Notes: generated from the letters alone by a model not told the origin. DNA of 64,000 nt from Candidatus Uhrbacteria bacterium (GCA_023246355.1 JAHFIQ010000003.1:85018-149017), one strand, 5' to 3'. Shown: positions 822-64,000, numbered from the stretch's first letter. Translations and numbers: made by a program.

Positions 822-877
822 AATTTGGGTAGTCCCAGGCTTTAGCCTGGGCGTGATTTCAATGCTAGAATCTTAAC

Positions 878-1523: not shown

Positions 1524-2588
1524 TTAGTCGATGATCCCGCCGCCGAGGACTTTTTCGCCGTCGTAAAAGACAATCGACTGGCCTGGCGTGACTGCGCGTT
1601 GAGGATGGCTAAACTTGACTAAGACCCCATCACTCCCTCCCCCCTTGATCCCCCCTCGGGCAGGGGGGAAAACTTCACACTCTTGTAACGGCTGGCGGTA
1701 GCGAATCCTTGCCTGGCAGGAAAATGGAACGGTTGGTTTCTCAAACCAGTTGAGTTGTGATGCGGTTAGCTCTTTCTTAAACAACCCAGGATGGAAGTTG
1801 CTTCCAACCACCAGCTCTTTTGTCTCTGGGCGTTTTTCAATCACATAGTACGGCTCTCCCCCGCCGATCCCAAGTCCTTCACGCTGACCGATGGTGTAAA
1901 ACGCCAAACCCTCGTGCGTGCCGATGACTTTTCCGTCTGTGGTCACGACGTTTCCAGGATCCTTGGGAAGACGCTGCTGCAAAAACTTCCGCATTTCGAC
2001 TTCCCCGACAAAACAAATTCCTGTTGAATCTTTTTTCTCTGCGACTTCCAGTCCTGCCCTGCGTGCAAGATCACGAACCTCGGGTTTGGTCATCTCGCCG
2101 ATGGGAAACAGAACGTGCGGCAAAACCGAAGGTGGTATCGCCCAAAGGAAATACGATTGATCTTTGTTTGGGTCAAGGCCTGAGAGGAGGTTGTAGGGAG
2201 TACGTTGTAGGGAGGAGGGAGCCACTCGAGCGTAATGCCCTGTGGCAACAACATCACAGCCTAACCGATCCGCTTCCTGAACAAACCGATCAAACTTGAT
2301 AAATTTATTGCACAAGACGTCCGGATTTGGCGTACGGCCTGCTTCAAACTCCTCGAACATATTCTCGACAACCTTCGCCCGGTATTCTTCCTCAAAATCA
2401 AACGTCACAAATGGAATGCCAAGCTTTGCTGCCACACGCGTGGCATCTCGTTGGTCCGCACGCCAATTGCAGTCAGACCAGTTTTTCATGAACGCGCCAA
2501 TCACCTCATAGCCATCCTTCAATAACAAAACCCCGGACACAGATGAATCCACGCCTCCAGACATACCAAGAAGGACTTTTTTTGACAT
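1524..2588 (-). CDS. mnmA: tRNA-specific 2-thiouridylase MnmA
   Basis: PP-loop SGGVDSSV at N-terminus; conserved GLDPNKDQSYFL and C-terminal PGQSIVFYDGEKVLGGGII. Carries an 8-aa insertion (PARGGIKGGG) encoded by a C6/G6 palindromic element at 1639-1670. Confidence 0.95.
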   Translation of the reverse strand: MSKKVLLGMSGGVDSSVSGVLLLKDGYEVIGAFMKNWSDCNWRADQRDATRVAAKLGIPFVTFDFEEEYRAKVVENMFEEFEAGRTPNPDVLCNKFIKFDRFVQEADRLGCDVVATGHYARVAPSSLQRTPYNLLSGLDPNKDQSYFLWAIPPSVLPHVLFPIGEMTKPEVRDLARRAGLEVAEKKDSTGICFVGEVEMRKFLQQRLPKDPGNVVTTDGKVIGTHEGLAFYTIGQREGLGIGGGEPYYVIEKRPETKELVVGSNFHPGLFKKELTASQLNWFEKPTVPFSCQARIRYRQPLQECEVFPPARGGIKGGGSDGVLVKFSHPQRAVTPGQSIVFYDGEKVLGGGIID

Positions 2589-15334: not shown

Positions 15335-18019
15335 TCATGCTCCATGGCACTTCTTAAACTTTTTTCCTGATCCGCAATGGCAGGGTTCGTTGCGGCCGAG
15401 TTTTTCTTCTCGCATGCCTTCGACCCCCCTCATTCCCCCCTTGCCAAGGGGGGAAGCTTTCTGATTCCCCTCTACGGCTCCTTGCAGCACCACTCCTGCC
15501 TTCTGGAAGACAGATCGGCCGAGTTCCATTTGGACTTTCATGTCCACCGCGTGCTTGGCGTACTTAAAAAACGTATACGTAATTTCATGGTTGATTGATC
15601 CAAGAAGATTTTGGAACATACCAAAGCCTTCTCGTTTGTACTCAACCAGCGGATCGCGCTGACCGTAGCCTTGCAAGCCGATGCCGGTTCTCAGCGCACT
15701 CATCGCAGCAAGATGATCAATCCAGAGTGTATCGATCGATCGCAGAATCACCCCGCGCTCGATGTTGTAGATGCTCTTTTTGTCTTCGAAGACGTCGGCG
15801 AGCTGATCGTAGGTCTGGCGAACGACTTCCATGATTTTGATGATGACTTGCGTCCGATCTTGCGCCAGCCGCTCTCGCTCTTTTGTGGATGCTAGGTCAA
15901 GCGTTGTGAGTGAAGACTTCTGTGCATCCGTGAGCGGCACAATCGTCCCTACGGTCTCAACAATTTCTTTCATGTTCCATCCACCTTCTCCACCTTGTCC
16001 ACCCTCAGAACTATGAAACAACACGACCTGCTCCACCTCACCTTCGATCACATCCAGCACACGAGATCGAAGAGCTTCTGGTTCTTTTGCAAACAATTCA
16101 AGGATTTCCAAGCGTCTGGCATAGATGACTTCACGATGCTTGTTGAGCACGTCGTCATACTCGAGCAAATGTTTGCGTGAATCAAAATGATACCCTTCCA
16201 CGCGTGTCTGTGCCTTTTCAATTGAGCCGGTGATGAGTTTGTTTTCAATGGGCATGTCATCCGGAATTCCGAGGCGGTCCATCATGCCTCGCGCACGGTC
16301 TGAACCGAAGATCCGCATGAGTCCATCTTCCATAGACAAATAAAACTGGGTGGAACCTGGATCGCCTTGGCGACCTGAACGTCCGCGCAATTGATTATCG
16401 ATGCGCCGAGCGTCGTGGCGCTCCGTGCCGATCACATGCAATCCTCCAAGTTCTTTGACACGCGCTTCTTCCTCAGGCGTTGCTGGATTTCCGCCAAGCT
16501 TTATGTCGACTCCGCGTCCTGCCATGTTAGTGGCAATCGTCACCGCGTGAGTACGTCCTGCCTGGGCGATAATTTCCGCCTCGCGATCGTGATTTTTCGC
16601 ATTCAATACTTCATGCCTGACCCCCGCGTTTGTCAAAAGCAGGGACAGCACCTCATTTTTTTCCACGCTCACGGTACCCACCAAGACGGGTTGACCTTTT
16701 TCTTGAAGCGTCTGAATTTCTTTGACGACCGCCTCAAACTTTCCCTTTTCACTCTTAAAAATTTTGTCTCCTAAGTCAACCCGCTCCACAGGTTTGTTCG
16801 TTGGGATCTCTACGACTTCCAAATTGTAGATCTTGGAAAATTCTTCGGCTTCGGTTGCCGCGGTTCCGGTCATGCCTGACAACTTGTGATACAAACGAAA
16901 AAGATTCTGGAACGTAATGGTCGCAAGTGTTTGGCTCTCACGCTGGATCTGCACGCCTTCTTTTGCCTCGATGGCTTGATGAATCCCTTCGGAGAATCGG
17001 CGGCCCTGCATCAGACGTCCAGTAAATTCATCCACAATAATCACCTCACCTTCCTTGACCACATAATGGACGTCCTTTTGATAGTTGGCACGAGCTCGGA
17101 GCGCAGAATCAGCGTAGCGTTGATATTGTCCTTGATCGATCGCATAGAGATTTTCGATTCCAAGCGCTCGTTCAATATGTTCAATGCCTGTTTCTGTCAG
17201 CGTGGCCGCACGCATTTTTTCGTCCACATTATAATCTTCGTTCTCTTTCAACGAAGCCACGATCTGCGCAAACCGATAGTAGAGGTCATTGGATTTCTCC
17301 GCAGGTGCGGAGATGATAAGTGGTGTGCGAGCTTCGTCGATCAGGATGGAATCGATTTCGTCAACGATCGCGTAATGCAATTCGCGCATGACGCATGCCT
17401 CAATGCTCGGCGCCATGTTGTCGCGCAAATAATCAAATCCAAATTGATTGTTGGTGCCGTAGGTGATGTCCGCTTGGTAGGCTTCGCGGCGAGAGACCGA
17501 TCTGAGTCCATGCGAAGCCGCGGGATCAAACAGGAGTCCTCCTTCATGCTGAATCACACCAACACTCATGCCAAGCGCATGAAAAATTTGCCCCATCCAT
17601 GCGGCATCGCGACGGGCCAGATAATCGTTGACCGTCACCAGATGACAACCCTGACCACGAAGAGCATTCGCGTAGAGCGCAAGCGTTGAGGTGAGTGTTT
17701 TTCCCTCACCAGTACGCATCTCAGCTATCTGTCCACGATGGAGCGTGAGCCCACCAATGAGCTGAACATCAAAATGGCGCTGCCCAAGTGTTCGTTTTGC
17801 GACCTCTCGTACCACCGCAAAGGCCTCGTACACAAGATCATCAAGAGCCACGCCTTGTGCGAGGCGCGATTTAAACTCGGAGGTTTTTCCTTTCAGTTCA
17901 TCGTCCGTGAGCGATGCAATCGAAGGCTCGAGCGCGTTAATGCTCTCGATTTCACGAAACAGACTTCCGATGAGTTTCTTGTTTGGATCCCCAAAAAGAA
18001 GTTTCAAGACTCTGGACAT
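15335..18019 (-). CDS. secA: preprotein translocase ATPase SecA
   Basis: 894 aa; MRTGEGKTLTSTLALYANAL Walker A region and DEAD motor. C-terminal zinc finger CHCGSGKKFKKCHG. Linker contains an in-frame palindromic-element insertion at 15414-15445. Confidence 0.97.
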   Translation of the reverse strand: MSRVLKLLFGDPNKKLIGSLFREIESINALEPSIASLTDDELKGKTSEFKSRLAQGVALDDLVYEAFAVVREVAKRTLGQRHFDVQLIGGLTLHRGQIAEMRTGEGKTLTSTLALYANALRGQGCHLVTVNDYLARRDAAWMGQIFHALGMSVGVIQHEGGLLFDPAASHGLRSVSRREAYQADITYGTNNQFGFDYLRDNMAPSIEACVMRELHYAIVDEIDSILIDEARTPLIISAPAEKSNDLYYRFAQIVASLKENEDYNVDEKMRAATLTETGIEHIERALGIENLYAIDQGQYQRYADSALRARANYQKDVHYVVKEGEVIIVDEFTGRLMQGRRFSEGIHQAIEAKEGVQIQRESQTLATITFQNLFRLYHKLSGMTGTAATEAEEFSKIYNLEVVEIPTNKPVERVDLGDKIFKSEKGKFEAVVKEIQTLQEKGQPVLVGTVSVEKNEVLSLLLTNAGVRHEVLNAKNHDREAEIIAQAGRTHAVTIATNMAGRGVDIKLGGNPATPEEEARVKELGGLHVIGTERHDARRIDNQLRGRSGRQGDPGSTQFYLSMEDGLMRIFGSDRARGMMDRLGIPDDMPIENKLITGSIEKAQTRVEGYHFDSRKHLLEYDDVLNKHREVIYARRLEILELFAKEPEALRSRVLDVIEGEVEQVVLFHSSEGGQGGEGGWNMKEIVETVGTIVPLTDAQKSSLTTLDLASTKERERLAQDRTQVIIKIMEVVRQTYDQLADVFEDKKSIYNIERGVILRSIDTLWIDHLAAMSALRTGIGLQGYGQRDPLVEYKREGFGMFQNLLGSINHEITYTFFKYAKHAVDMKVQMELGRSVFQKAGVVLQGAVEGNQKASPLGKGGMRGVEGMREEKLGRNEPCHCGSGKKFKKCHGA

Positions 18020-24415: not shown

Positions 24416-24441
24416 GTCACGTCGGTCGCGACCGACGTGAC
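24416..24441 (+). promoter_or_regulatory. perfect 13-bp-arm palindrome/hairpin in the 5' UTR
   Basis: GTCACGTCGGTCGCGACCGACGTGAC lies between the promoter and an AGGAG Shine-Dalgarno 8 nt before the ATG at 24463. Confidence 0.5.
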
Positions 24442-28457: not shown

Positions 28458-28510
28458 GGCGGGTGGCACGGAACTGGTCTGCACCGTGACAGGACCCGCC
28501 TTATTTTTAT
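28458..28510 (+). other. hairpin with T-run between ybaB and recR (possible attenuator/terminator)
   Basis: GGCGGGT...ACCCGCC stem then TTATTTTTAT. The loop is large (29 nt) and the T-run overlaps the recR ATG. Confidence 0.3.
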
Positions 28511-29111
28511 GCGTAGGTTTCCCGAACCCATTACCAATCTCGTCGCGGCTTTTGCACGACTTCCTGGCGTGGGGCCCAAAACGGCTCTTCGCTATGTTTT
28601 TTATCTTCTGCAACAGCCCAAGGCAGATTTGGAAGTGATGGCACGCGCCCTTATCCAGTTAGGAGAACGCATCCAAACCTGTCCGCGTTGCTTCACCTAC
28701 ACCGAAGCTCAGATGTGCGAAATTTGTTTGGATCCAAAGCGCGACAGTAAACTCCTCTGTGTGGTGGAAGAAGCACGTGACATCGCAACAATCGAATCCA
28801 CGGGCGGATTCAACGGTCTCTATCACGTGATGGGAGGATCGCTCAACCCGATCGAAGGCATCACGCAAGACGTGATCCGTTTTCGTGAGTTGAAAAATCG
28901 TATTGAGACAGAGCCAGGCATCGAGGAGGTGATTCTTGCTCTTTCGCCGACCACGCAGGGCGAAACAACGATCCTCTTTTTACAAAAACAGCTCGCGCCT
29001 CTGGTGCGTTCTCTGACTCGCCTCGCCCGCGGCCTCCCCATGGGCGCCACCCTCGAGTTTGCCGACGAGGTGACCTTGGGAGATGCGCTCAAAGGAAGGA
29101 GGAAATTATAA
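28509..29111 (+). CDS. recR: recombination protein RecR
   Basis: HhH LPGVGPKTALRYVFYLL, C4 zinc finger CPRC...CEIC and Toprim domain. Confidence 0.95.
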   Translation: MRRFPEPITNLVAAFARLPGVGPKTALRYVFYLLQQPKADLEVMARALIQLGERIQTCPRCFTYTEAQMCEICLDPKRDSKLLCVVEEARDIATIESTGGFNGLYHVMGGSLNPIEGITQDVIRFRELKNRIETEPGIEEVILALSPTTQGETTILFLQKQLAPLVRSLTRLARGLPMGATLEFADEVTLGDALKGRRKL

Positions 29112-29116
29112 CGAGG

Positions 29117-29139
29117 CTCCCCCCTGCCCGAGGGGAGGG
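29117..29139 (-). repeat. C6/G6 palindromic element, intergenic copy
   Basis: ctcccccctgcccgaggggaggg; its reverse complement matches the mnmA-internal copy core CTCGGGCAGGGGGGA. Confidence 0.55.
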
Positions 29140-29209
29140 TTTCATAAAAGCAAGAGCGCACCCGACGGCGAGCCGAAGGGGGGCTCAAGCCGCGCGAGTG
29201 CGCAGAGGG

Positions 29210-29821
29210 TCATGTTGCCGTGGAAATGAGCCGCGGCTTCACGAACAGGATGAACATCATGGTGCTCTCGATGGCCAGGAACGTGATGGGCTGTGCTGCG
29301 TCATCGAGCGACCACGAGGGCACTGCCGCTACCGCGAGCAGACAGGAAATCCAGTACAGCGTCCAGGCCAACTTGTCTTCTTCCCCTGGCTTGCCCCAGG
29401 CATTCTGGAAGGTCGGCACGGAGCCGATGAACATCGCGGTCAGGCTGGTTGTCAATCCAATGGTCGGACTGTCAAACACCTGCCACAAGACGATGGCCAG
29501 AGCCGCGCACAAGAGACAGAACTTGTCGAGCCACGTCCATCCTGGCTTGCCGTATTTGAGCGCGAGTGTAGCCACCGTCCATGTGCCGATGACGGCGGCG
29601 GTGATCTGGCCGTTCACGGAGTGACGCGCGAACATTCCGGTGAACGTGATCGAGTCCAGAGCACCCCAGATGATCCAGGACGTCTTCTGCGGCCTCGTCT
29701 CACCGCGCACCACTGCACAAATGTAAGGGATGTACGCAATGATGAACACGATGGCGGAGAGAGTGGAGAGGATCTGCACGTTGACCTCCTGTCGTATGCA
29801 ATCGACTAATGATTCTAGCAA
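29210..29821 (-). CDS. polytopic membrane protein (hypothetical; possible PQ-loop-like)
   Basis: 203 aa, ~6-7 TM, with RGETRPQKTSW after the first helix. Start uncertain. Confidence 0.4.
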   Translation of the reverse strand: MLESLVDCIRQEVNVQILSTLSAIVFIIAYIPYICAVVRGETRPQKTSWIIWGALDSITFTGMFARHSVNGQITAAVIGTWTVATLALKYGKPGWTWLDKFCLLCAALAIVLWQVFDSPTIGLTTSLTAMFIGSVPTFQNAWGKPGEEDKLAWTLYWISCLLAVAAVPSWSLDDAAQPITFLAIESTMMFILFVKPRLISTAT

Positions 29822-48056: not shown

Positions 48057-48131
48057 GGCCCCATCGTCTAACGGTTAGGACGGCAGGTTCTCATCCTGCA
48101 AACCGGGGTTCGATTCCCCGTGGGGTCACCA
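48057..48131 (+). tRNA. tRNA-Glu (anticodon CUC), CCA encoded
   Basis: Cloverleaf: acceptor GGCCCCA/TGGGGTC, D-arm GTCT-AACGGTTA-GGAC, anticodon arm GCAGG-TTCTCAT-CCTGC, T-arm CGGGG-TTCGATT-CCCCG, 3' ACCA. Confidence 0.85.
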
Positions 48132-55612: not shown

Positions 55613-56056
55613 TCAAAGTTCGGTCACATCGTCTTCTGAAACATACCTCCCCAGGTAGACCAGATTCTCCCCTGTTTCCTCGTTGCCGATGATTCTCAAA
55701 ATTTCACCTTCTGCTGTTTGATAATCGCTCACGAGAAACGTGTCGTCGACTTCGGCCACGGATTCACCGTTGGTGTCCATGACCGTGCCAGCTTCCTCAG
55801 AGGTGAATTCGTATTCCTTCTCTTTGAGCGTGACCGTGTCGCCTTCTGGCTCGATTTCGTCGTCGATCTCTTTGAAGAAAATAAGCTCTTCGTCTTTGAG
55901 GGACACAGAGAACAGATTTCCCTCGTCATCATAGAACCAACGCAGCTTTGCGCCGTCGTCGATTTCGATTTGCGCGTGACCAACGTAGGTAAACGGATCC
56001 GTGCCAATTTTGAGTGCGTCACCTAAATGTAGTCTCCAAAGGTCTTTGATCGTCAT
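55613..56056 (-). CDS. hypothetical acidic protein (147 aa)
   Basis: ORF rich in D/E (EIDDEIEPEGDTV) with no recognised catalytic motif. Confidence 0.45.
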   Translation of the reverse strand: MTIKDLWRLHLGDALKIGTDPFTYVGHAQIEIDDGAKLRWFYDDEGNLFSVSLKDEELIFFKEIDDEIEPEGDTVTLKEKEYEFTSEEAGTVMDTNGESVAEVDDTFLVSDYQTAEGEILRIIGNEETGENLVYLGRYVSEDDVTEL

Positions 56057-56133
56057 AATGGTTCCTCCTTAAAAATACAGGAGGATTAAAACACGCCAAC
56101 GCTTTTGTGTCTACTCCTCTAGTTTTCCCCACC

Positions 56134-56158
56134 CAAGTTGGGAGCCTGGCTCCCAACT
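56134..56158 (+). promoter_or_regulatory. 25-bp perfect palindrome AAGTTGGGAGCC-T-GGCTCCCAACTT followed by a T-run
   Basis: At the low-GC/high-GC boundary. Could be a terminator-like hairpin or a dimeric protein-binding site. Confidence 0.4.
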
Positions 56159-56182
56159 TTTGGCTTATTTTAGCTACGTACC

Positions 56183-56211
56183 CTTGACAAAACCGTCAAA
56201 ATATGATATCT
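56183..56211 (+). promoter_or_regulatory. sigma70-like promoter (TTGACA-17-TATCTT) for the high-GC gene at 56306
   Basis: cccTTGACAaaaccgtcaaaatatgaTATCTTac; TTGAC...GTCAA also forms a small palindrome. Confidence 0.45.
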
Positions 56212-56305
56212 TACTCGCCTCAGAATGTGGCGGGTTATCTGAGTGACGGACAGAAGTCACTGAGACCACCCGCTGCTTCTGCAGCACTTTTCCCAGGAGT
56301 ACATC

Positions 56306-56986
56306 TTGTCTGTTCCCCAACTCAAGCCGCCGTTCGCGCGCGTCTTCCTGATGATCCGCATCAACCCGCGGAAGGTCAGCCGCTTCGAGCAAGCCGGCAT
56401 CCGTATCGTCCGGCGCACGGCCGAGCGTGACGAGGCCATCCGTGCGAGGCATGCCGAGCAGGTCGGCGAGGAGAAGTACGAACGGTTCGGACTCCGGCAG
56501 GACGCGGAGGGCAACCTTCGCGGCCACTCGGGAGAACCCGTGTTCGGCTTCAACCGCAAGGGCATCCCCCACGAAGCGATCAAGCTGTTCCACCTCCACG
56601 ACGACCTCCAGACGGCCGGCTACAGGCTGATCCGGATGGAGATCGTGATCAAGCCGCGCACGGAGGAGAACAAGCTCGAGAAGAAGCCCGACATGGGCGT
56701 GCTGGTCCTGGCCTACGAGCAGGAAGGCACGGAGGTCGCCCTCACGCAGCTTCAGCTCCAGATGCTCGGCAACGAGCTCTCACGCTACTTCCAACACGTC
56801 CACGTCTGGGACAACAGGGACGCCGACGGCTCTGCCGCGGTGAACCCGTCCCACGTGGTCGAGGAGAAGGACGAGGGGAAGCTCACCGACCCGCGCCTGC
56901 TGCGCCTCCAGATCCTCGACAGCGGGGAGCCGGAGTGGATCAACGAGCCCGAGGCGGCCCCTGCCGCGATGGCCGCCAACGGCTAG
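56306..56986 (+). CDS. hypothetical protein (226 aa), high-GC (~65%) island gene
   Basis: ORF with strongly GC3-biased codons (CTG, GGC, GAG, AAG, GAC), unlike the core genes. No family assigned. An alternative start exists at MIRINPRKV. Confidence 0.5.
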   Translation: MSVPQLKPPFARVFLMIRINPRKVSRFEQAGIRIVRRTAERDEAIRARHAEQVGEEKYERFGLRQDAEGNLRGHSGEPVFGFNRKGIPHEAIKLFHLHDDLQTAGYRLIRMEIVIKPRTEENKLEKKPDMGVLVLAYEQEGTEVALTQLQLQMLGNELSRYFQHVHVWDNRDADGSAAVNPSHVVEEKDEGKLTDPRLLRLQILDSGEPEWINEPEAAPAAMAANG

Positions 56987-57005
56987 CAACGCACTGCCCC
57001 GTGCG

Positions 57006-57070
57006 AAGAAGAGTCCCCGCGTGATTTCGATCACCGGAAACGAGACTCGACTTCGCGCGGGGCTCTTCTT
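57006..57070. other. 15-bp perfect inverted repeat (AAGAAGAGTCCCCGCG ... CGCGGGGCTCTTCTT) between convergent island genes
   Basis: Stem with a 34-nt loop. Possible bidirectional terminator. Confidence 0.4.
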
Positions 57071-57081
57071 ATCCAAAAAAT

Positions 57082-57627
57082 CTACCGTCGATACAAAAAG
57101 ACATTCGGCTGACCTTGTGCCATATCGATGACGTCATCTTCCCAACCATCGATCGGCCAAACATAACTCACGACTCTGGCTCCTGGTTTCAATTCCGCTT
57201 CCAGCTTTGGACGGATTTTTTTGTAGGCCGCGGGCATGAGAAATAGATAAACCACGTCGTAATCTGAGAGGGGGTGCTTGAATACATTTCCAAGGACGAT
57301 TTCAGGAAAAGTGACGATCGCAAAATTTTGAAACTTTTTTTGCGATCGCAAAAAGGCCACCTGCATTTTTGCGATCGTCCACTGGAGCAGGGACAACTCC
57401 ACTCCCACGATCCTTCCTGCCTGAGTCGTTTGTGCTAGATGCCGACAGACGCGTCCATTCCCACAGCCAAGCTCCACAAACATTTCCCCTGGTTGCAGAG
57501 CTACCAACCGCTCGATTCGTTTCAAATCCTTCTTCCACGTCGGCACCCACGGCGCGCCTTGGGTACTGGCATAAGCAACAGAGGCAAGAAGAATCAACCC
57601 GAGACTCAACAAAATATTTGGAACCAT
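57082..57627 (-). CDS. class I SAM-dependent methyltransferase with N-terminal signal/TM segment
   Basis: Motif I VELGCGNGRV. Start set at MVPNILLSLGLILLASVAYA. High GC. Confidence 0.65.
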   Translation of the reverse strand: MVPNILLSLGLILLASVAYASTQGAPWVPTWKKDLKRIERLVALQPGEMFVELGCGNGRVCRHLAQTTQAGRIVGVELSLLQWTIAKMQVAFLRSQKKFQNFAIVTFPEIVLGNVFKHPLSDYDVVYLFLMPAAYKKIRPKLEAELKPGARVVSYVWPIDGWEDDVIDMAQGQPNVFLYRR

Positions 57628-57659
57628 ACGACAACAAGTATAACAAAAAACCGCCGCGA

Positions 57660-58610
57660 CTACTCGCGACGGATGACGTTGACGTCGAACCCGAAGATGT
57701 CTCGTTCTCCTCGTGTGGCAGCGATGCCATCCTCGTCTGCAACCGCCGTCACGCAGTGCCACAAAGGGCTGCCCTTGTCTGCGTGGAAAATGCCCAGACC
57801 TGGGGTAAGTGTGAGATCCAGCAAGTGCGTCTGCTTGTCGGCTCCGGTGATGTAGCTCACTCCACCGACCACTCCTTCTCGCACCACAACGAGTGCTGAG
57901 ACGATGTAGTCGGCGCCGTCTTGATGCAATCCCTCAGGCGCATTGCTGCGCGCTTCACCAGGTCGAGCCAGAAGCCCCATCTGATGAAACGTGATCTCGA
58001 GGTCTTGAATGACGCGGCCTTGATCCCCCTCGGCATCCTCGGTCATCTCAGCAACAGCGATGACGAGACGATGAAACTCGACATGCTCCACCAGCTCGGC
58101 AGCCGTGGGATCGAAGATGCGTTCGATCGTGCGAGGATCGCTTCCACCCACCTCTTGGGTAAACCCGTGACACTCGGTTCTGACCACATGCCACTGCGCA
58201 TCCCAGTTTCCCGTCGCCCGGTTGGTGAGATGAAATCTCGCGATCGACCGTCGTCGATAGGAACGAATCCGCTCGAAGCGAATCTGATCCTGCGTTGGCA
58301 GTCGACGGAAGTACGGAATGAGGTCAATGACGTTTCCCTCCTGTGCAAAGTAGCTGGGGAGGAAACGGTCAAACCACGGCGCGTCAGCAGGAAAACGTTC
58401 CCGAAGAAACGCGACCTGCTCACGTTTCACATCATAGAGATCCCACGAAAGCCTTTGAAAGCTTGGCGCGAGATCTCGGAGAAACCGCTCAGGGTGAACC
58501 CCGATGCCTTCCAGGTTGAACACGCGAATGGGATGTGTGATCACCACGCCGCGTGCTCTTGCAATCTCTTCCTCTGTCAGCACGTACCTGATCCCAGATT
58601 GGCGTTCCAT
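57660..58610 (-). CDS. 2OG-Fe(II) oxygenase-like/cupin-type protein (putative)
   Basis: HQDGADYIVSALVV (HxD) plus downstream WHCV His, suggesting a 2-His-1-carboxylate facial triad. Start set at MERQSGIRYV. Family assignment tentative. Confidence 0.4.
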   Translation of the reverse strand: MERQSGIRYVLTEEEIARARGVVITHPIRVFNLEGIGVHPERFLRDLAPSFQRLSWDLYDVKREQVAFLRERFPADAPWFDRFLPSYFAQEGNVIDLIPYFRRLPTQDQIRFERIRSYRRRSIARFHLTNRATGNWDAQWHVVRTECHGFTQEVGGSDPRTIERIFDPTAAELVEHVEFHRLVIAVAEMTEDAEGDQGRVIQDLEITFHQMGLLARPGEARSNAPEGLHQDGADYIVSALVVVREGVVGGVSYITGADKQTHLLDLTLTPGLGIFHADKGSPLWHCVTAVADEDGIAATRGERDIFGFDVNVIRRE

Positions 58611-58618
58611 GATTCCTC

Positions 58619-60568
58619 CTACCTCGGCGCGCGGCCATCGAGTTCCATCTGGCGGATCTCGGCCATCCATTTCACCTTGAGGGCTTTGGCCTCTGCCTTG
58701 GTCATCTCAGTACCTCCTGGCAGCAAGGCCTTCACCGTACAGTTCACCAGCGCCTGAAGCGTCTGGTAGCGACGAGTGTCCTCGATGTCAGAAGGAAGTC
58801 GGTCTTCTATGAGTCCGATCACCTCTTCCACCGTGAGCCCGTCTTCGTCGGCGGCGGCAGTGAGATCCGCACGCAGCGAACCGAAGTCGGCTGCTGAGTA
58901 TCCTTCCGTGGCCGCACACAGCGCTTTCCACGGCTCCCCATGCATGGCGATCTCCGGGAGAACCGGCTTGATCGCCCACAGGATGAATGCATCCCGATCT
59001 GCGCCTACCGCATCCAGCACAGGAATGATGAGATCACCGGCGCGTCCAGGTCGCCGCATGTCTGGCGACAAGTCCTGGATCCGTGCCGTCATGAGGCACC
59101 ACACGACTTTTCCACGCAGCTTGGGATCGCTCATCCACTTCTGGAATTCACCGGTGAGCCGACGTTCGGTCTCGTGGGTATCAGCACCAACGCCACCAAA
59201 CACCGTGTCAGCTTCGTCCACAAACGGCATGGCACGATCGAGACTCGTGAGAACCCGGTACAAACGCTCCAGCATGATGTCGGTTTCCCCGAACCACTTG
59301 CTGCGAAGGTTGCCCAGCTCCAGCACGACCATTCCCAGTTCAGCCGCGAACGCCTCGAAGATGAAGCTCTTGCCACCGCCGATGGGACCTGAGACCCCGA
59401 AACCTGAGATCGCCTTTTTTCCTCCCGCCTTGATGCGCGGGAGAATTTTCGTGGTCAAAAACACGACCAAATCCGTTGCCCCAACCACATCCTTCAGTCG
59501 ATGCGCCGGCTTCTTGAACTTCACGACGCCTTCGCCCAACTGCGAGATGATGTAGGCCTCCACACGAGAGAGCACATGAGAAGGATCGAGGATCTGACCG
59601 TCGTAGACGTTGCCCATCAACATCTGCCGCAGAGCATGGATCGTGAGACCCGCAGAGAGCTCCGAGAGTTCTGCCTGTGTCCCCCAAAGCTTGATCTTGT
59701 TTCCTTCCTCCTGGTTACGGTTGAACCAGGTGATGAAGTGGCTTCGCGCTTCGGTGTTGGGACTGGGAATCGCCACACGCAAGACTTGCGGCAGCTTGAC
59801 CACGCGATGATTCACGCTTGCAGCTGACTCGGCGATCAAGACCACGGAGTCCTGTGCATGGAGAAACTCCGGATCCGAGAACCAGCTTTGGCAGATCATC
59901 ACTCGATGACGATCCGCCTCGTTGAGACTCGTGATCTGTCCTTCAGGAATGATCGTGTCCGCGCGCTCGATCAGAATCACCAGTCGCCTGCCATACAAGG
60001 CATCGCCCTGCACGGCCGCACGAGAAACCTTGCACATCTCGGCAAGCAGGGTGAGAGCCACCGCAGGTTTGCCCATTACGCGGGTGAGGTACTCGTCGAA
60101 TTCTGGTCCGGACGCCGCGAGCTTCTTGGCCTCTTCGCCGTGAGAGAGCATGCGCCGAATCGCCAGATCATCCGCGGATAGCCCGGTCTGCTGCTTCACC
60201 CAATCAGTCCTCATGGCCTCACGGTCGCTTTCGCGAGCAAATCGGATGGGACCATTGAGACTATAGGTCAGAAGCACCACACTCTCGGGCTTCCCCCAAT
60301 GCGCCCTGAGATTGTCGGCGATTGGGACGTAGCGCCCGAACTCGCTGTCTTGAGACAGGGTGGGTGGAAGCCAGAACAGGTCCTCGACATTGCCGGTGAG
60401 CACAATCGTGCGGGCAGAACCCGCATTCAAGATGTCCGCCGCCTCGCGACGCCAGGGGTATTCCAGATGGGGAATGGACATGAATCCTCCAGAGAACTTG
60501 TCTTCGGACGACGAATCATTCGTCGTCCAGAGAAAAGGGTCGATGTGAAATCGACCGGTGAGCGACAC
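58619..60568 (-). CDS. classic-clade AAA ATPase with a ~370-aa N-terminal domain of unknown function
   Basis: C-terminal module GVSGPIGGGKSFIFEAFAAELG...LRSKWFGETD...PFVDEADTVFGG...TARIQDLSPDMRRPGRAGD follows the CDC48/FtsH-type AAA consensus (Walker A/B, SRH-like, Arg finger). Confidence 0.8.
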   Translation of the reverse strand: MSLTGRFHIDPFLWTTNDSSSEDKFSGGFMSIPHLEYPWRREAADILNAGSARTIVLTGNVEDLFWLPPTLSQDSEFGRYVPIADNLRAHWGKPESVVLLTYSLNGPIRFARESDREAMRTDWVKQQTGLSADDLAIRRMLSHGEEAKKLAASGPEFDEYLTRVMGKPAVALTLLAEMCKVSRAAVQGDALYGRRLVILIERADTIIPEGQITSLNEADRHRVMICQSWFSDPEFLHAQDSVVLIAESAASVNHRVVKLPQVLRVAIPSPNTEARSHFITWFNRNQEEGNKIKLWGTQAELSELSAGLTIHALRQMLMGNVYDGQILDPSHVLSRVEAYIISQLGEGVVKFKKPAHRLKDVVGATDLVVFLTTKILPRIKAGGKKAISGFGVSGPIGGGKSFIFEAFAAELGMVVLELGNLRSKWFGETDIMLERLYRVLTSLDRAMPFVDEADTVFGGVGADTHETERRLTGEFQKWMSDPKLRGKVVWCLMTARIQDLSPDMRRPGRAGDLIIPVLDAVGADRDAFILWAIKPVLPEIAMHGEPWKALCAATEGYSAADFGSLRADLTAAADEDGLTVEEVIGLIEDRLPSDIEDTRRYQTLQALVNCTVKALLPGGTEMTKAEAKALKVKWMAEIRQMELDGRAPR

Positions 60569-60579
60569 GGGATCCGTGT

Positions 60580-61527
60580 CTATGAGCGAGGGGCGAGAAC
60601 CCCCTCGGCTTGGCCTTGTGCAACCGTTTCCCAGAACGTGCGGTGTTCATGGGGATCGAGATCCCGCCCATCGAAGACGATCTCGTAGAGCTCCTCAGCT
60701 TGGTGCGTGATGCGACCGTTCCTGATCGGATCAGACGCGTGGAAGACGGGCGCGGCCTTGTCGTAGACCACACGCGCTCCTCGACCATCTCGTCCCTTCC
60801 AATGCTTGGAAAGGCCGATCACACGATCGCCGACATGCACAGCTTCTTCCAATTGATGGGTGACCATGATGACCGTGTGCGGAGGTTCCCCTCCTTCCTG
60901 AACAGCCTTCATGTTTTCGTCATAGAGATCCAGCAAGACCCGACGTGCGTCGTGGCGCGTTTCCTCGTCGAGGGCTCCGAAGGGCTCATCCAGAAGCAGA
61001 ATCTCCGGCTGCATGATGAGTGCCCTGGCAATCGCGACACGTTGCCGCTGACCACCAGAGAGCTGATGGGGAAACTTGTGCGTATGGCCTGCAAGACCAA
61101 GGCGCGCAAGCATCGCTTCACTTGCTTCCAGTTGTGCTTTGCGTGCCCGACGCCAGGAGCCGGTGATCGATCCCACCAGCCTTGCGGGAATGGTTGTGCT
61201 CCCCAGCATGAGGCCCAGAGCCACATTGTGAAGCGCACTCAGATGCGGGTACAGCGAGTACTCCTGGTACACCATGCCGCGGTCCGGTCCATGGCCCTGC
61301 ACCTCGTAGCTCTCTCCGGCTCGCGTGAGTAGGATTCTCCCGGACGTGGGTTCATGCGTCCCAACGATCATGTTGAGCAGCGTGGACTTTCCACAGCCGG
61401 AGGAGCCGACCATGGCCACGATCTGACCGCGAGCGATCTTCACGTTGATGCCGGTGAGCACCTGCGTGGCTCCAAATGCCTTGTGAACATCCACACAATC
61501 CAGGGCGACCTGGTAGCGAGCTTCCAT
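60580..61527 (-). CDS. ABC transporter ATP-binding protein (NitT/TauT-type importer)
   Basis: GSSGCGKST Walker A, LSGGQRQRVAIARAL signature and LLLDEPFGALD Walker B. Start ATG overlaps the permease stop (ATGA). Confidence 0.9.
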   Translation of the reverse strand: MEARYQVALDCVDVHKAFGATQVLTGINVKIARGQIVAMVGSSGCGKSTLLNMIVGTHEPTSGRILLTRAGESYEVQGHGPDRGMVYQEYSLYPHLSALHNVALGLMLGSTTIPARLVGSITGSWRRARKAQLEASEAMLARLGLAGHTHKFPHQLSGGQRQRVAIARALIMQPEILLLDEPFGALDEETRHDARRVLLDLYDENMKAVQEGGEPPHTVIMVTHQLEEAVHVGDRVIGLSKHWKGRDGRGARVVYDKAAPVFHASDPIRNGRITHQAEELYEIVFDGRDLDPHEHRTFWETVAQGQAEGVLAPRS

Positions 61528-62366
61528 CACTGTCCCTCCCGGACATACCAGGGGCAGAGCAGCCGCTGGACTTGGTTGAAAAACACTTGGATCCCGATTC
61601 CCATGAACCCGAGGGCCATGAGATACGGAATCACCACGTCCATGCGAGCCGATCGGTACAGACGCAGGAAGCGATAGCCATAGCCCGCCTGTCCTGCAAC
61701 CCATTCGGTTGCGACCAGCAAGATGAGGGCCAGCCCCACACTTGCTCGAATGGCATCGATGATCTGGGGAAGCACCTGCCAAAACAGGATGCTCCAGACA
61801 ATCTCTTGGTTGCTGGCGCCAAGCGTCTTGGCACTGAAGATGTGTTCGTCGTGCACTTCGCGCACCGCGGCGTAGACCCTGCCGGCAATCACTGGCAAAA
61901 TCCCGAACACGATGACCGCGGCAAACATCTTGAACTCGAACCCGAACAGGGTGATGAACACGACCATGGCGACATTGGGAACGATGTTCTCCTCGAAGTT
62001 GAGAAGGCGTCCCCACATGCTTTCGGCCGCGACATAGGTTCCCATGTAGAGCCCCAGCACCACTCCCAGAACACTGGCGATCCCGATCGCTGGCACGAGC
62101 CGGGCGTAGGAATCGATCGTGTCCTTCAAGAGGACATAGTCACCGCTCTTGGGATCCTTCCACATCTCGCCCACGCCGTGGAACAACTTGCCCCACGTCG
62201 GAATCAGCGTGTTGTCGCCCAGGTAGGCCAGAGCCGTGTAGGCGGTAAGGATGAGGAGAATCGCCAGGGCGAAGTAGCAACGAGAGAGCCAGGCAGGCAG
62301 ACTCTCGCGCATGGTGAAGGTGGCGCGAATGTAGTCACGCCAAGAGCGCGTACGAATCTGGTCCAT
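61527..62366 (-). CDS. ABC transporter permease (NitT/TauT family)
   Basis: 6-TM binding-protein-dependent permease with an EAA-like loop region. Start set at MDQIRTRSW. Confidence 0.8.
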   Translation of the reverse strand: MDQIRTRSWRDYIRATFTMRESLPAWLSRCYFALAILLILTAYTALAYLGDNTLIPTWGKLFHGVGEMWKDPKSGDYVLLKDTIDSYARLVPAIGIASVLGVVLGLYMGTYVAAESMWGRLLNFEENIVPNVAMVVFITLFGFEFKMFAAVIVFGILPVIAGRVYAAVREVHDEHIFSAKTLGASNQEIVWSILFWQVLPQIIDAIRASVGLALILLVATEWVAGQAGYGYRFLRLYRSARMDVVIPYLMALGFMGIGIQVFFNQVQRLLCPWYVREGQ

Positions 62367-62471
62367 GGTGGACTCCGTGGAAAAAACGTCTCTTCGGATG
62401 ACGACCATCGTCATCCAGAGAAAAGGGTCGACGCACCTGGCTTCAAGAGCCAGGGGTCGACCTGAGTGCGG

Positions 62472-63653
62472 CTAGCGCACGAGCGACGTGTCGAAGCGCA
62501 GCAGCGCGGTGGGAGCGGACTCCTTCGTGCCCCAGGCCATGGGGATCGCGTCCACGGAATCCACGAGCTTGTGGACGACCGAGAACTCCTGCACGAGCGG
62601 CATGTTGGCGCGGAACGTCGGCGAGTCCAGCACATCCGCGTCGTTGGGACCCATCATGTGGGTCAGCTCCATGGAGCGGCCGATTGCGCCGTTGTCCAGG
62701 TCGTTGAACTGCGGGCTGATGGCCCGGTAGGTCTGTGCCTGCTGCGAGGGATCCCGACTGCGAGCGGTCATGCTCTGCATGGCCAGCCCCAGGACCCGCA
62801 CACCTTCACGTCCGCCGGCTCGATCGAGCGCCTTCTGGCCCACCACCAACATGTCGGTGATCTCGTAGTCCTGGAGCATCGAGCTGTTGAACAGGTCGCG
62901 CACATCGTCGGCTTTGTCCTCGTTGCCGTTTCGGGTATCCAGGACCGTGAAGGTCTCCGGACTCCATCCACCGAAGGCGCGCAGCGCCGGATCTTGGCGA
63001 CCCGCGAACTGCGTGGAACCCACGACCGGGTCGAGGTTCACGAACGTGTAGTCGGATCCGTAGCGGCCGGCCACGTTGTTCACGGTGCAGGCACGCCAGT
63101 ACAGGTACTGGGTGACCGAGAACTCGGCGCCGTGCACGGGCACGCCCGCGAGGTCTGCCCAGGTTGCGATCTCATCTTCCACGAGGATCTTGTCCGCGCC
63201 GTCCGACCAGGAGGTCGGAAACACGGCCACGGTTGCGTCCCCGCTGCTCTTCTTGCGCTCACCGGCAACCGCGAAGGCGTCGGTGTTGGTGATGAGCAGC
63301 GCGTCCACGGTCCCGGCGCCGTACACGCCGAAGGACTGCACGTAGTCCATGCGCTGGAGCACGACATCCACGCCGTTGTCCCGTTCGAACTGGCCCTGCC
63401 AGCCCTGCCGGTTGTCGATGTAGCCGAAGGCCTCGGCACTCGCCAGAGCCGACCACGAGGTGTAGGGCGACCAGGCGAGCGTGAAGACCGGCGTCCCTGC
63501 GGGCGCTTCGGTCTTCTGCGCGAGAGGATTGGCCGCGCTGCTGGGCTGAACGGTCACCTCCGGAGGGGAACCGATTCCGTCACTGGGACCCGAATTGCGG
63601 TTGTCCTGGCTGGCGCAGGCGATGAGCATGATGAGAGGAACGAGGGGAAGCAT
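62472..63653 (-). CDS. ABC transporter substrate-binding lipoprotein
   Basis: Signal peptide with lipobox LIMLIACASQ. Periplasmic-binding-protein-size mature domain. Start set at MLPLVPLIML. Confidence 0.75.
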   Translation of the reverse strand: MLPLVPLIMLIACASQDNRNSGPSDGIGSPPEVTVQPSSAANPLAQKTEAPAGTPVFTLAWSPYTSWSALASAEAFGYIDNRQGWQGQFERDNGVDVVLQRMDYVQSFGVYGAGTVDALLITNTDAFAVAGERKKSSGDATVAVFPTSWSDGADKILVEDEIATWADLAGVPVHGAEFSVTQYLYWRACTVNNVAGRYGSDYTFVNLDPVVGSTQFAGRQDPALRAFGGWSPETFTVLDTRNGNEDKADDVRDLFNSSMLQDYEITDMLVVGQKALDRAGGREGVRVLGLAMQSMTARSRDPSQQAQTYRAISPQFNDLDNGAIGRSMELTHMMGPNDADVLDSPTFRANMPLVQEFSVVHKLVDSVDAIPMAWGTKESAPTALLRFDTSLVR

Positions 63654-63775
63654 CTGACGTCTCCGTGTTGAACGGCTCGCAAGCGAGCCTTGGGTGATCA
63701 CTCTTTCCGGGTTTCCCCGGTCAGGGTGGTGAAAAGTCACGTCGGTATGATCGACGTGACAGCTTGTGCGAAGCG

Positions 63776-64000
63776 CTAGCTCAGCTTCTCTGCAGCGGCC
63801 GCCGGCGCATCCGGTACCCTGGTCTTGGTCTCGACCTGCTCGGCCAGGCCCAAGAGCGCCGCGAACTCGATGGACGCTTGGGCTTCGTGAGCAGAGGCGA
63901 GGTACTGCGACTCGCTGACAGCCGCATCCGTTCCCGCGAGCTCGGAGGAGACACGCGCTTCGGCTTCGGCCTGACCCACGACCTCGCGAATCGAGGAGAG
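63776..64000 (-). CDS. possible 3' part of a gene continuing beyond the window end
   Basis: High-GC minus-strand ORF (GTG start in the track; may extend upstream past 64000) ending ...LGLAEQVETKTRVPDAPAAAAEKLS. Weak. Confidence 0.2.
   Translation of the reverse strand, partial: LSSIREVVGQAEAEARVSSELAGTDAAVSESQYLASAHEAQASIEFAALLGLAEQVETKTRVPDAPAAAAEKLS

Follow-up and report, generated by a model that had tools for sequence, protein, structure and literature searches.

Short palindromic repeats that persist inside genes are known from several systems. Repetitive extragenic palindromic (REP) sequences and REPINs include intragenic copies (Bertels & Rainey 2011, PMC3116915; Di Nocera et al. 2013, PMC3733652), which have been reported in-frame in protein loops and linkers, with tRNA-modification and other housekeeping genes among their hosts (PMC3116915, PMC3733652); by definition, a REP carries a GTAG or CGTC tetranucleotide at one end (PMC3733652). 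Rickettsia palindromic elements (RPEs; Ogata et al. 2000, as summarized in PMC10969869 and PMC3733652) are repeats of about 100-150 bp that occur in Rickettsia only and have a CGTC end; their families specify conserved peptides, each read in a fixed frame. In the mitochondria of Nematomorpha, hairpin repeats persist within coding sequence and are translated (PMC6649704). Here we analyze a palindromic element of 31-32 nt that lies in-frame in the mnmA and secA genes of a Candidatus Uhrbacteria bacterium, within a stretch of 64,000 nt (GCA_023246355.1 JAHFIQ010000003.1:85018-149017; hereafter the window) that is part of a contig of at least 168 kb. Genomes of this group, the candidate phyla radiation (CPR) or Patescibacteria, measure about 1 Mb and are regarded as poor in selfish DNA. 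The small dispersed repeats (SDRs) of Nostoc, reported by Elhai et al. in 2008 (Genome Res 18:1484) as eight families, reportedly form hairpins of 21-27 nt, show nested insertions and encode no enzyme, and were reportedly confined to one cyanobacterial subgroup. Overall, the element is of a kind already known, a short palindromic repeat tolerated in-frame; its unusual trait, atypical of REP-like repeats, is that the same core is common to many phyla.

In about 72 kb we identified four copies, of which three are intragenic. Locus L002, which extends the window to the left, is identical to it across an overlap of 2,588 nt.

1639-1670, minus strand: E1, full element in mnmA, CCCCCCTTGATCCCCCCTCGGGCAGGGGGGAA (sense strand TTCCCCCCTGCCCGAGGGGGGATCAAGGGGGG, translated FPPARGGIKGG)
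15424-15455 (core; 15416-15455 with 3' flank), minus strand: E2, full element in secA, CCCCCCTCATTCCCCCCTTGCCAAGGGGGGAA (sense strand TTCCCCCCTTGGCAAGGGGGGAATGAGGGGGGTCGAAGGC, translated SPLGKGGMRGVEG)
29118-29140, plus strand: E3, shortened intergenic copy, TCCCCCCTGCCCGAG / TCCCCCCTGCCCGAGGGGAGGG
L002 12717-12747, 130 nt past the window's left edge: E4, C5/G5 copy in-frame in a hypothetical gene, LPLAKGESEGVEG

The genes that host or adjoin these copies are as follows.

1524-2588, minus strand: mnmA (tRNA 2-thiouridine synthase, 354 aa), host of E1
15335-18019, minus strand: secA (894 aa), host of E2
28509-29111, plus strand: recR, with E3 starting 6 bp past its stop
1-511 (N-terminal part within the window), minus strand: hypothetical gene of 318 aa, host of E4, continuing beyond the left edge

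The element unit reads T-C6-T(T)-loop-(A)A-G6-A-NNN-A-G6, and, read on the sense strand, all four copies have the C run on the 5' side of the G runs. E3 corresponds to E1 minus one G6 unit: both contain an identical 18-mer, TCCCCCCTGCCCGAGGGG, that includes the non-palindromic loop GCCCG, after which E3 runs on as AGGG. It lies just past the recR TAA (29109-29111), between recR and a convergent open reading frame (ORF) at 29210-29821. E2 and E4 have 29 of 39 nt in common, are read in the same frame and share a 3' flank (TCGAAGGC, GTCGAAGGC). A first-pass annotation of the window had placed E1 at 1639-1670 and a third copy 6 bp after the recR stop, and both positions are borne out; it had also recognized the secA copy, although its coordinates for it (15414-15445) were off by 10.

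Homopolymer-rich sequences in a metagenome assembly might resemble one another through chance low complexity or assembly error, an explanation that we consider extremely improbable here. Neither the pattern CCCCCC-T-NNN-T-CCCCCC-T-NNNNN-A-GGGGGG-AA nor the E1/E3 18-mer was matched in 100 dinucleotide-preserving shuffles, and C6 runs are depleted in the window (11 vs 23 expected), with six of the 11 belonging to E1 and E2. The exact MnmA and SecA proteins are found on several ENA, NCBI and Logan contigs, so the assembly is reproducible; the same sequence stands in at least seven independent contigs or assemblies. Related copies also occur in other projects' assemblies (the Uhrbacteria contigs L001, L124 and L127) and in complete cyanobacterial genomes and plasmids. 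A covariance model (R1), built from 50 copies and searched against the whole window with filters off, scored E1 at 45.9 bits (E = 2e-9) and E2 at 50.3 bits (E = 2e-10); E4 scored 40.9 bits, and E3 was a weak match (E = 0.9).

Both full copies lengthen their host proteins in flexible regions. The 354-aa ORF is MnmA: its best database matches are Patescibacteria/Candidatus Uhrbacteria MnmA proteins (76-83% identity), and a comparison with solved MnmA structures gives E = 1e-98. Between the anchors RIRYRQ and RAVTPGQS it has 45 residues vs 37 in insert-free relatives, and the MnmA proteins of Bacillus subtilis and Streptococcus pneumoniae are 9 residues shorter at the insert, as are solved MnmA structures. 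An AlphaFold model (mean predicted local distance difference test score, pLDDT, 86) shows residues 308-321 as coil with pLDDT of about 50-60, between strands 302-307 and 322-331 in a beta-turn of the C-terminal barrel. In SecA, 47 residues separate conserved anchors vs 39 in relatives without the insert, again a gain of eight. Here, the insert lies in a length-variable linker from the helical C-terminal region to the zinc-binding domain, and the element ends 8 residues upstream of a zinc-binding peptide that matches solved SecA zinc-finger peptides. The SecA linker ahead of the zinc finger is flexible. The proposal that a palindromic repeat at unrelated loci adds about eight residues in-frame to a surface loop or linker therefore agrees with the modeled MnmA coil and with the SecA linker. 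Moreover, no intragenic copy interrupts its ORF, the nested ones described below included, and translation of the inserts is thus the simplest reading.

We compared the reading frames of the copies. E1 is read TTC CCC CCT GCC CGA GGG GGG ATC AAG GGG GGA and E2 is read TCC CCC CTT GGC AAG GGG GGA ATG AGG GGG GTC, a one-base frame shift from E1; the codons of E4 are CTC CCC CTT GCC AAG GGG GAG TCA GAG GGG GTC GAA GGC. The first-pass annotation had assigned MnmA and SecA the same element frame, which is not the case. Uhrbacteria copies use all three sense frames, one in E2, E4 and L124, another in E1 and L001, and the third in contigs L127, L200 and L201. C6 and G6 runs encode Pro-Pro or Gly-Gly in any frame and on either strand, so that a copy that keeps the frame becomes a flexible Pro/Gly loop, and an element without a frame of its own can thus persist in essential genes. 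The use of all three frames has the same explanation.

At the nucleotide level, third-codon positions within the mnmA element are identical between the window and L001 at 10 of 11 sites (91%) vs 55% in the rest of the gene. The corresponding comparison of secA with L124 gives 11 of 11 (100%) vs 41%; where the amino acid is the same, the codon is identical at 9 of 9 positions in the secA element vs 45% elsewhere in the gene. Given this synonymous conservation, the use of three frames and the untranslated E3, the conserved object is a DNA or RNA motif, not a peptide. It is very unlikely, then, that the Pro/Gly peptide itself was selected as an adaptive extension of a loop or linker, with the DNA palindrome incidental. 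Such selection would fit the location of both inserts in exposed, flexible regions and their retention in several lineages, but the frames yield differing peptides (FPPARGGIKGG, SPLGKGGMRGV and RPPSQGGPQGV), and many orthologues have no insert.

We examined the orthologous sites in other Uhrbacteria, drawing on the contigs that encode the proteins and on a SecD-anchored metagenome scan. The mnmA site is filled in the window and in L001, L129 and L131, and is empty (37 aa) in L128, L130, L135, L136 and L146. L001 (82% amino-acid identity) has the arms, loop and spacer of E1 exactly, with a 30-nt palindrome, CCTGTCCGCCGAAGCCTTGGCGAAGGCGGA, nested in the loop; L129 and L131 carry a variant element, CCCCCCTCCTTTTTAAGGAGGGGTTGGGGG, and L196 and L197 hold TTGCGAGGAGCCGAAGGCGACGAAGCAATC, a hairpin repeat unrelated to it. 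In secA, L124 (78%) has a canonical copy, TCCCCCCTTTCCAAGGGGGGACAGAGGGGGG, in the frame of E2, and L127, L200 and L201 (71-89%) have C5/G5 or decayed versions, with a second palindrome nested in or adjoining the element in L127 and L201. A different hairpin, CCCAGGCTTCAGCCTGG, stands in place of the element in L125 and L131, carrying in L131 a nested palindrome in its own loop, and the secA sites of L130 and L146 have no hairpin. Palindromes of the TCCGCCGAAGCCTTGGCGAAGGCGGA type lie within the C/G element loop in L001 mnmA and L127 secA, and a similar one lies in the L131 secA hairpin. The orthologues in L001 and L197 lack E4. An intergenic inverted doublet of a CCCCTCC variant (fold z = -3.2) lies at L124 8444-8520, flanked by a murC-like gene and murB; no inverted doublet was found within the window. 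The insertions are not private to this genome: other Uhrbacteria are filled at the same mnmA and secA sites.

These genes and contigs hold further hairpin repeats. A second family, with an intergenic copy at window 834-850 (CCCAGGCTTTAGCCTGG), is read in-frame as SPRLQPG within the SecA linker of related Uhrbacteria, among them L125, L131 and many SecA entries in databases. Palindromes of a third family, comprising TCCGCCGAAGCCTTGGCGAAGGCGGA and its variants, are found at L001 4037-4066, at L127 ~500-525 and in the secA linkers of L131 and L201, with the peptides RRSLGEGG, STEALAKAE and PTYAEASAG; this family recurs nested within other hairpin elements' loops and seems to target hairpins. In L196 and L197, the MnmA turn that E1 occupies in the window holds a fourth repeat, TTGCGAGGAGCCGAAGGCGACGAAGCAATC, which encodes SLRGAEGDEAI, and we take its motif to be widespread across phyla as well. 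Uhrbacteria MnmA proteins have two more insertion hot spots, after NWS and after ATGHYAR (columns ~114-177 and 262-310 of alignment A1), where the peptides resemble hairpin repeats read as protein, as with CHLDRG..EIPRLAKRLARDD in protein P0062; at one such hot spot, L131 19480-19531 is a C8...G7 hairpin with a nested hairpin. Directly 3' of the mnmA stop, L131 20348-20386 is a C6...G6 hairpin followed by TTTT, a terminator-like arrangement, which suggests that C/G-run terminator hairpins grade into the repeat.

We then consider the distribution beyond Uhrbacteria. A scan of one genome per species with TCCCCCCT-N(5-35)-AGGGGGGA-NNN-AGGGGGG, which has 23 fixed bases, gave at least 120 loci, where a uniform-composition estimate predicts at most 0.5 chance matches; the matches listed, which include no Patescibacteria, show breadth, not abundance. 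At least eight other phyla contain the exact signature, and the motif is present in 35 viral contigs. Among the matches listed are many filamentous cyanobacteria (Nostoc, Scytonema, Rivularia, Tychonema and others), Planctomycetota (Phycisphaerae), Nitrospirota, Nitrospinota, Chloroflexota including Anaerolineae and Thermoflexus, Ignavibacteria, Calditrichia, Aminicenantes, and delta- and gamma-proteobacterial metagenome-assembled genomes (MAGs). Their cross-phylum consensus is TCCCCCCTT-NNN-AAGGGGGGA-NNN-AGGGGGG, and many of these copies have a fourth run upstream that makes a long four-run palindrome: the element unit contains three of the four runs that make up the longer C6-N5-C6...G6-N5-G6 palindrome. 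Again among the matches listed, some lineages carry an additional GC hairpin of variable sequence in the loop, and some genomes have several loci (at least five in one Thermoflexus MAG).

Most of the listed matches are intergenic, with a crude gene call placing 22 between convergent, 27 between tandem and 7 between divergent genes, and 35 of 141 fall within stop-to-stop ORFs that span 250 codons or more, where both orientations and various frames occur. Pfam-confirmed hosts are a type I polyketide synthase (PKS) with copies in its KS-AT and AT-DH linkers, a hybrid histidine kinase (in the gap between HisKA and HATPase), a TamB-like protein with three copies, and a Ser/Thr kinase. On annotated cyanobacterial plasmids, the motif falls under coding sequences such as those for a PKS, an N-6 DNA methylase, PglX and a CHAT-domain protein, with no repeat annotated. 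A cyanobacterial type I PKS at L103 808-7998 has two oppositely oriented copies in linkers and a GGIKGG-like segment further on; one of its encoded peptides, SPLSKGGQRGV, is the same as that in the Uhrbacteria SecA of L124.

We compared the element with the described repeat systems. Like REP and REPIN sequences, it is a dispersed, GC-rich imperfect palindrome of the 20-40 nt size class that forms inverted doublets (L124) and resides occasionally in-frame in loops and linkers. REPs lie mostly downstream of genes; intergenic copies of the element tend to do so among the matches listed, but three of its four copies in the Uhrbacteria genome lie within genes. Unlike in REPs, its core motif is common to many phyla whereas REP families are normally species- or genus-specific, and no RAYT gene was found among the 10 window ORFs scanned or as a recurrent neighbor at the 120 loci. 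It resembles RPEs as a palindromic, selfish-looking repeat in-frame in essential genes of a small-genome bacterium, where a surface position makes it compatible with the protein fold; it differs from them in its size of 31-32 nt, its use of all frames, its dissimilar sequence and its lack of CGTC. The first-pass likening to RPEs thus stands for in-frame surface insertion and fails for RPE membership. The tiny hairpin, the nesting and the lack of an encoded enzyme recall SDRs, and the C6/G6 motif is abundant in Nostoc and its relatives, including a Nostoc punctiforme plasmid; unlike SDRs as they are said to be distributed, it spans phyla including CPR bacteria. The coding palindromes of Nematomorpha are an analogy only, being of other sequences and sizes and in organelle genomes, and the element is not a miniature inverted-repeat transposable element, as it is a single short hairpin with no internal region (at least ~50 bp) flanked by terminal inverted repeats. 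Our literature search found no description of the element, or of in-frame palindromes, for Patescibacteria, and searching with the element's sequence string returned only papers on the polypurine tract of human immunodeficiency virus. The claim that such an element was new for this type of genome holds in this respect, but the motif itself is present in other phyla and in viral contigs.

The element is probably a passenger that is tolerated within genes, a short palindromic repeat without autonomy that belongs with REP/REPIN sequences, SDRs and RPEs in kind. Copies would be dispersed through the genome to terminator-like intergenic positions and into genes, where they would survive only if the frame is kept and the site is a surface turn or flexible linker, and would then be translated. 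Tolerance would follow from the Pro/Gly coding of the C and G runs in every frame and on both strands, and the MnmA and SecA inserts are probably near-neutral. The spread could occur by transposition-like copying, for example through a single-stranded hairpin intermediate and an HUH/Y1 enzyme (RAYT- or IS200-like) or another enzyme acting in trans, or alternatively by an RNA-mediated route, which has reportedly been proposed for SDRs. The hairpin may further serve as a preferred target for other small palindromes, turning occupied loops into hot spots, an idea suggested by the three instances of nesting and by the replacement of the element with other hairpin families. Several observations support a tolerated passenger repeat: the E1/E3 18-mer and the E2/E4 flank at unrelated loci of one genome, presence and absence at the mnmA site and of E4, unrelated hairpins at the same sites, and nesting. 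Support also comes from the three frames and the synonymous conservation, the inverted doublet in L124, the multi-copy occurrence of the exact motif in many phyla and the open ORFs of all intragenic copies.

The element might instead be immobile, consisting of old hairpins born in place by template switching or by slippage at homopolymers, with their resemblance due to convergence or gene conversion. This would accommodate the C-run/G-run hairpins that many Uhrbacteria carry within the secA linker next to orthologous flanks (SNGSSER, for example); the C5/C6 variants with compensating changes in spacer length, as expected from slippage; and the fact that neither a mobilizing enzyme nor a target duplication was found. 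We nonetheless regard it as quite unlikely: the E1/E3 18-mer, loop GCCCG included, and the E2/E4 flank argue for copying between loci, the 23-base signature recurs identically hundreds of times in unrelated phyla, far above the chance estimate, and the same second palindrome is nested at three independent places.

Folding and RNA-family searches bear on another possibility, that the hairpin is a selected cis-acting signal (for RNA 3'-end formation or stability, for pausing, or as a protein-binding DNA site, with two G6 runs 11 nt apart) and the peptide a by-product. The stem measures 8-10 bp across copies; E2 is a 10-bp perfect hairpin, and E3 also folds as a hairpin. However, shuffled sequences fold as well as E1 and E2 do in a 61-nt context, and fold energy by itself therefore provides no evidence. 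In an Rfam scan of the window at the gathering threshold, one tRNA passed and no family covered the element, and at permissive thresholds the element drew nothing beyond sub-threshold matches. Whalefall-1 (RF01762) is loosely alike in having a pyrimidine/purine-rich hairpin followed by a second purine-rich segment, but the element scores 14.8-18.4 bits against it vs a gathering score of 37, with 14.8 bits for the best relevant match. We rejected the Whalefall-1 and miRNA-like matches as generic hairpin matches below the gathering score. A role for E3 as an intrinsic terminator is unsupported, a simple scan of 28900-29400 showing no terminator-like site or T tract, and E1 and E2 lie inside ORFs, unlike intrinsic terminators.

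Sequence conservation speaks for such a signal. Synonymous sites are near-invariant in the element vs 41-55% identical in the rest of the gene. Across phyla, the C6/G6/G6 runs and their flanking T and A are kept while loops vary, the loop-closing pair being mostly T:A and occasionally C:G or G:C, and internal hairpin extensions vary in sequence with pairing maintained. All four copies here have the same sense orientation, E1 and E2 lie about 90-115 nt ahead of the stop codon, and intergenic copies favor positions downstream of genes among the matches listed. On the other side, many orthologues have no hairpin at these sites (for example L130 and L146), so the hairpin is not required, and unrelated hairpins may occupy the same sites. 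Other phyla, moreover, show both orientations and placement in arbitrary linkers of unrelated proteins. Taken together with the folding and Rfam results, this leads us to consider a cis-acting signal unlikely.

Several findings weigh against a mobile passenger repeat. The strong synonymous-site and cross-phylum motif conservation would also be expected of a functional cis-element. The secA linker is occupied by the element in much of Uhrbacteria (in SecA proteins 70-89% identical), possibly reflecting one old insertion rather than recurrent mobility. The copy number is only four in the ~72 kb covered, and the R1 search of the whole window revealed no further degenerate copies. Neither GTAG nor CGTC occurs in or adjoining E1-E4 on either strand, and no direct repeats or target-site duplications flank these copies. 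No transposase or other mobilizing gene was found among the 10 of 59 window ORFs scanned, and clustering of ORFs of at least 100 aa at 120 motif loci gave as recurrent neighbors only histidine kinases, response regulators and ABC ATPases.

A broader proposal would unite these repeats as one cross-phylum family of ultra-small mobile or structured modules with their own trans-acting machinery or host factor, which would target hairpin loops. Reading as Pro/Gly in all six frames, the modules would provide a general, recurrent source of new protein loops and linkers, from CPR essential genes to cyanobacterial PKSs. We put this forward as a doubtful extension.

The window has several further features. 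Perfect palindromes at 24416-24441 and 63736-63760 share GTCACGTCGG...CCGACGTGAC, and a related CCACGTCAC...GTGACGTGG lies at 1444-1467, at the end of ORF 878-1462; these may be another small repeat, operator or terminator family. GC content is 57-62% over 56000-64000 vs ~50% elsewhere. ORFs in this GC-rich part encode a 2OG-Fe dioxygenase (57660-58670), an AAA ATPase (58619-60568) and an ABC ATPase (60580-62016), with two more having no Pfam match, and the region may be an acquired island. Throughout the 64 kb, GC skew is negative, and the minus strand carries most of the genes; the RNA genes comprise one tRNA, Glu-CTC at 48057-48131, and no rRNA.

Overall, several tiny hairpin-repeat families occupy the same surface loops of SecA and MnmA, where they are probably translated and turn over between lineages. 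This would account for many of the peculiar Pro/Gly-rich inserts that CPR proteins carry in particular lineages, and serves as a warning to annotators and structure predictors that such inserts derive from DNA repeats. The inserts also provide a natural map of insertion-tolerant protein sites. If a common mechanism lies behind the 31-nt signature across phyla, the spread of the smallest "mobile" repeats would become testable.

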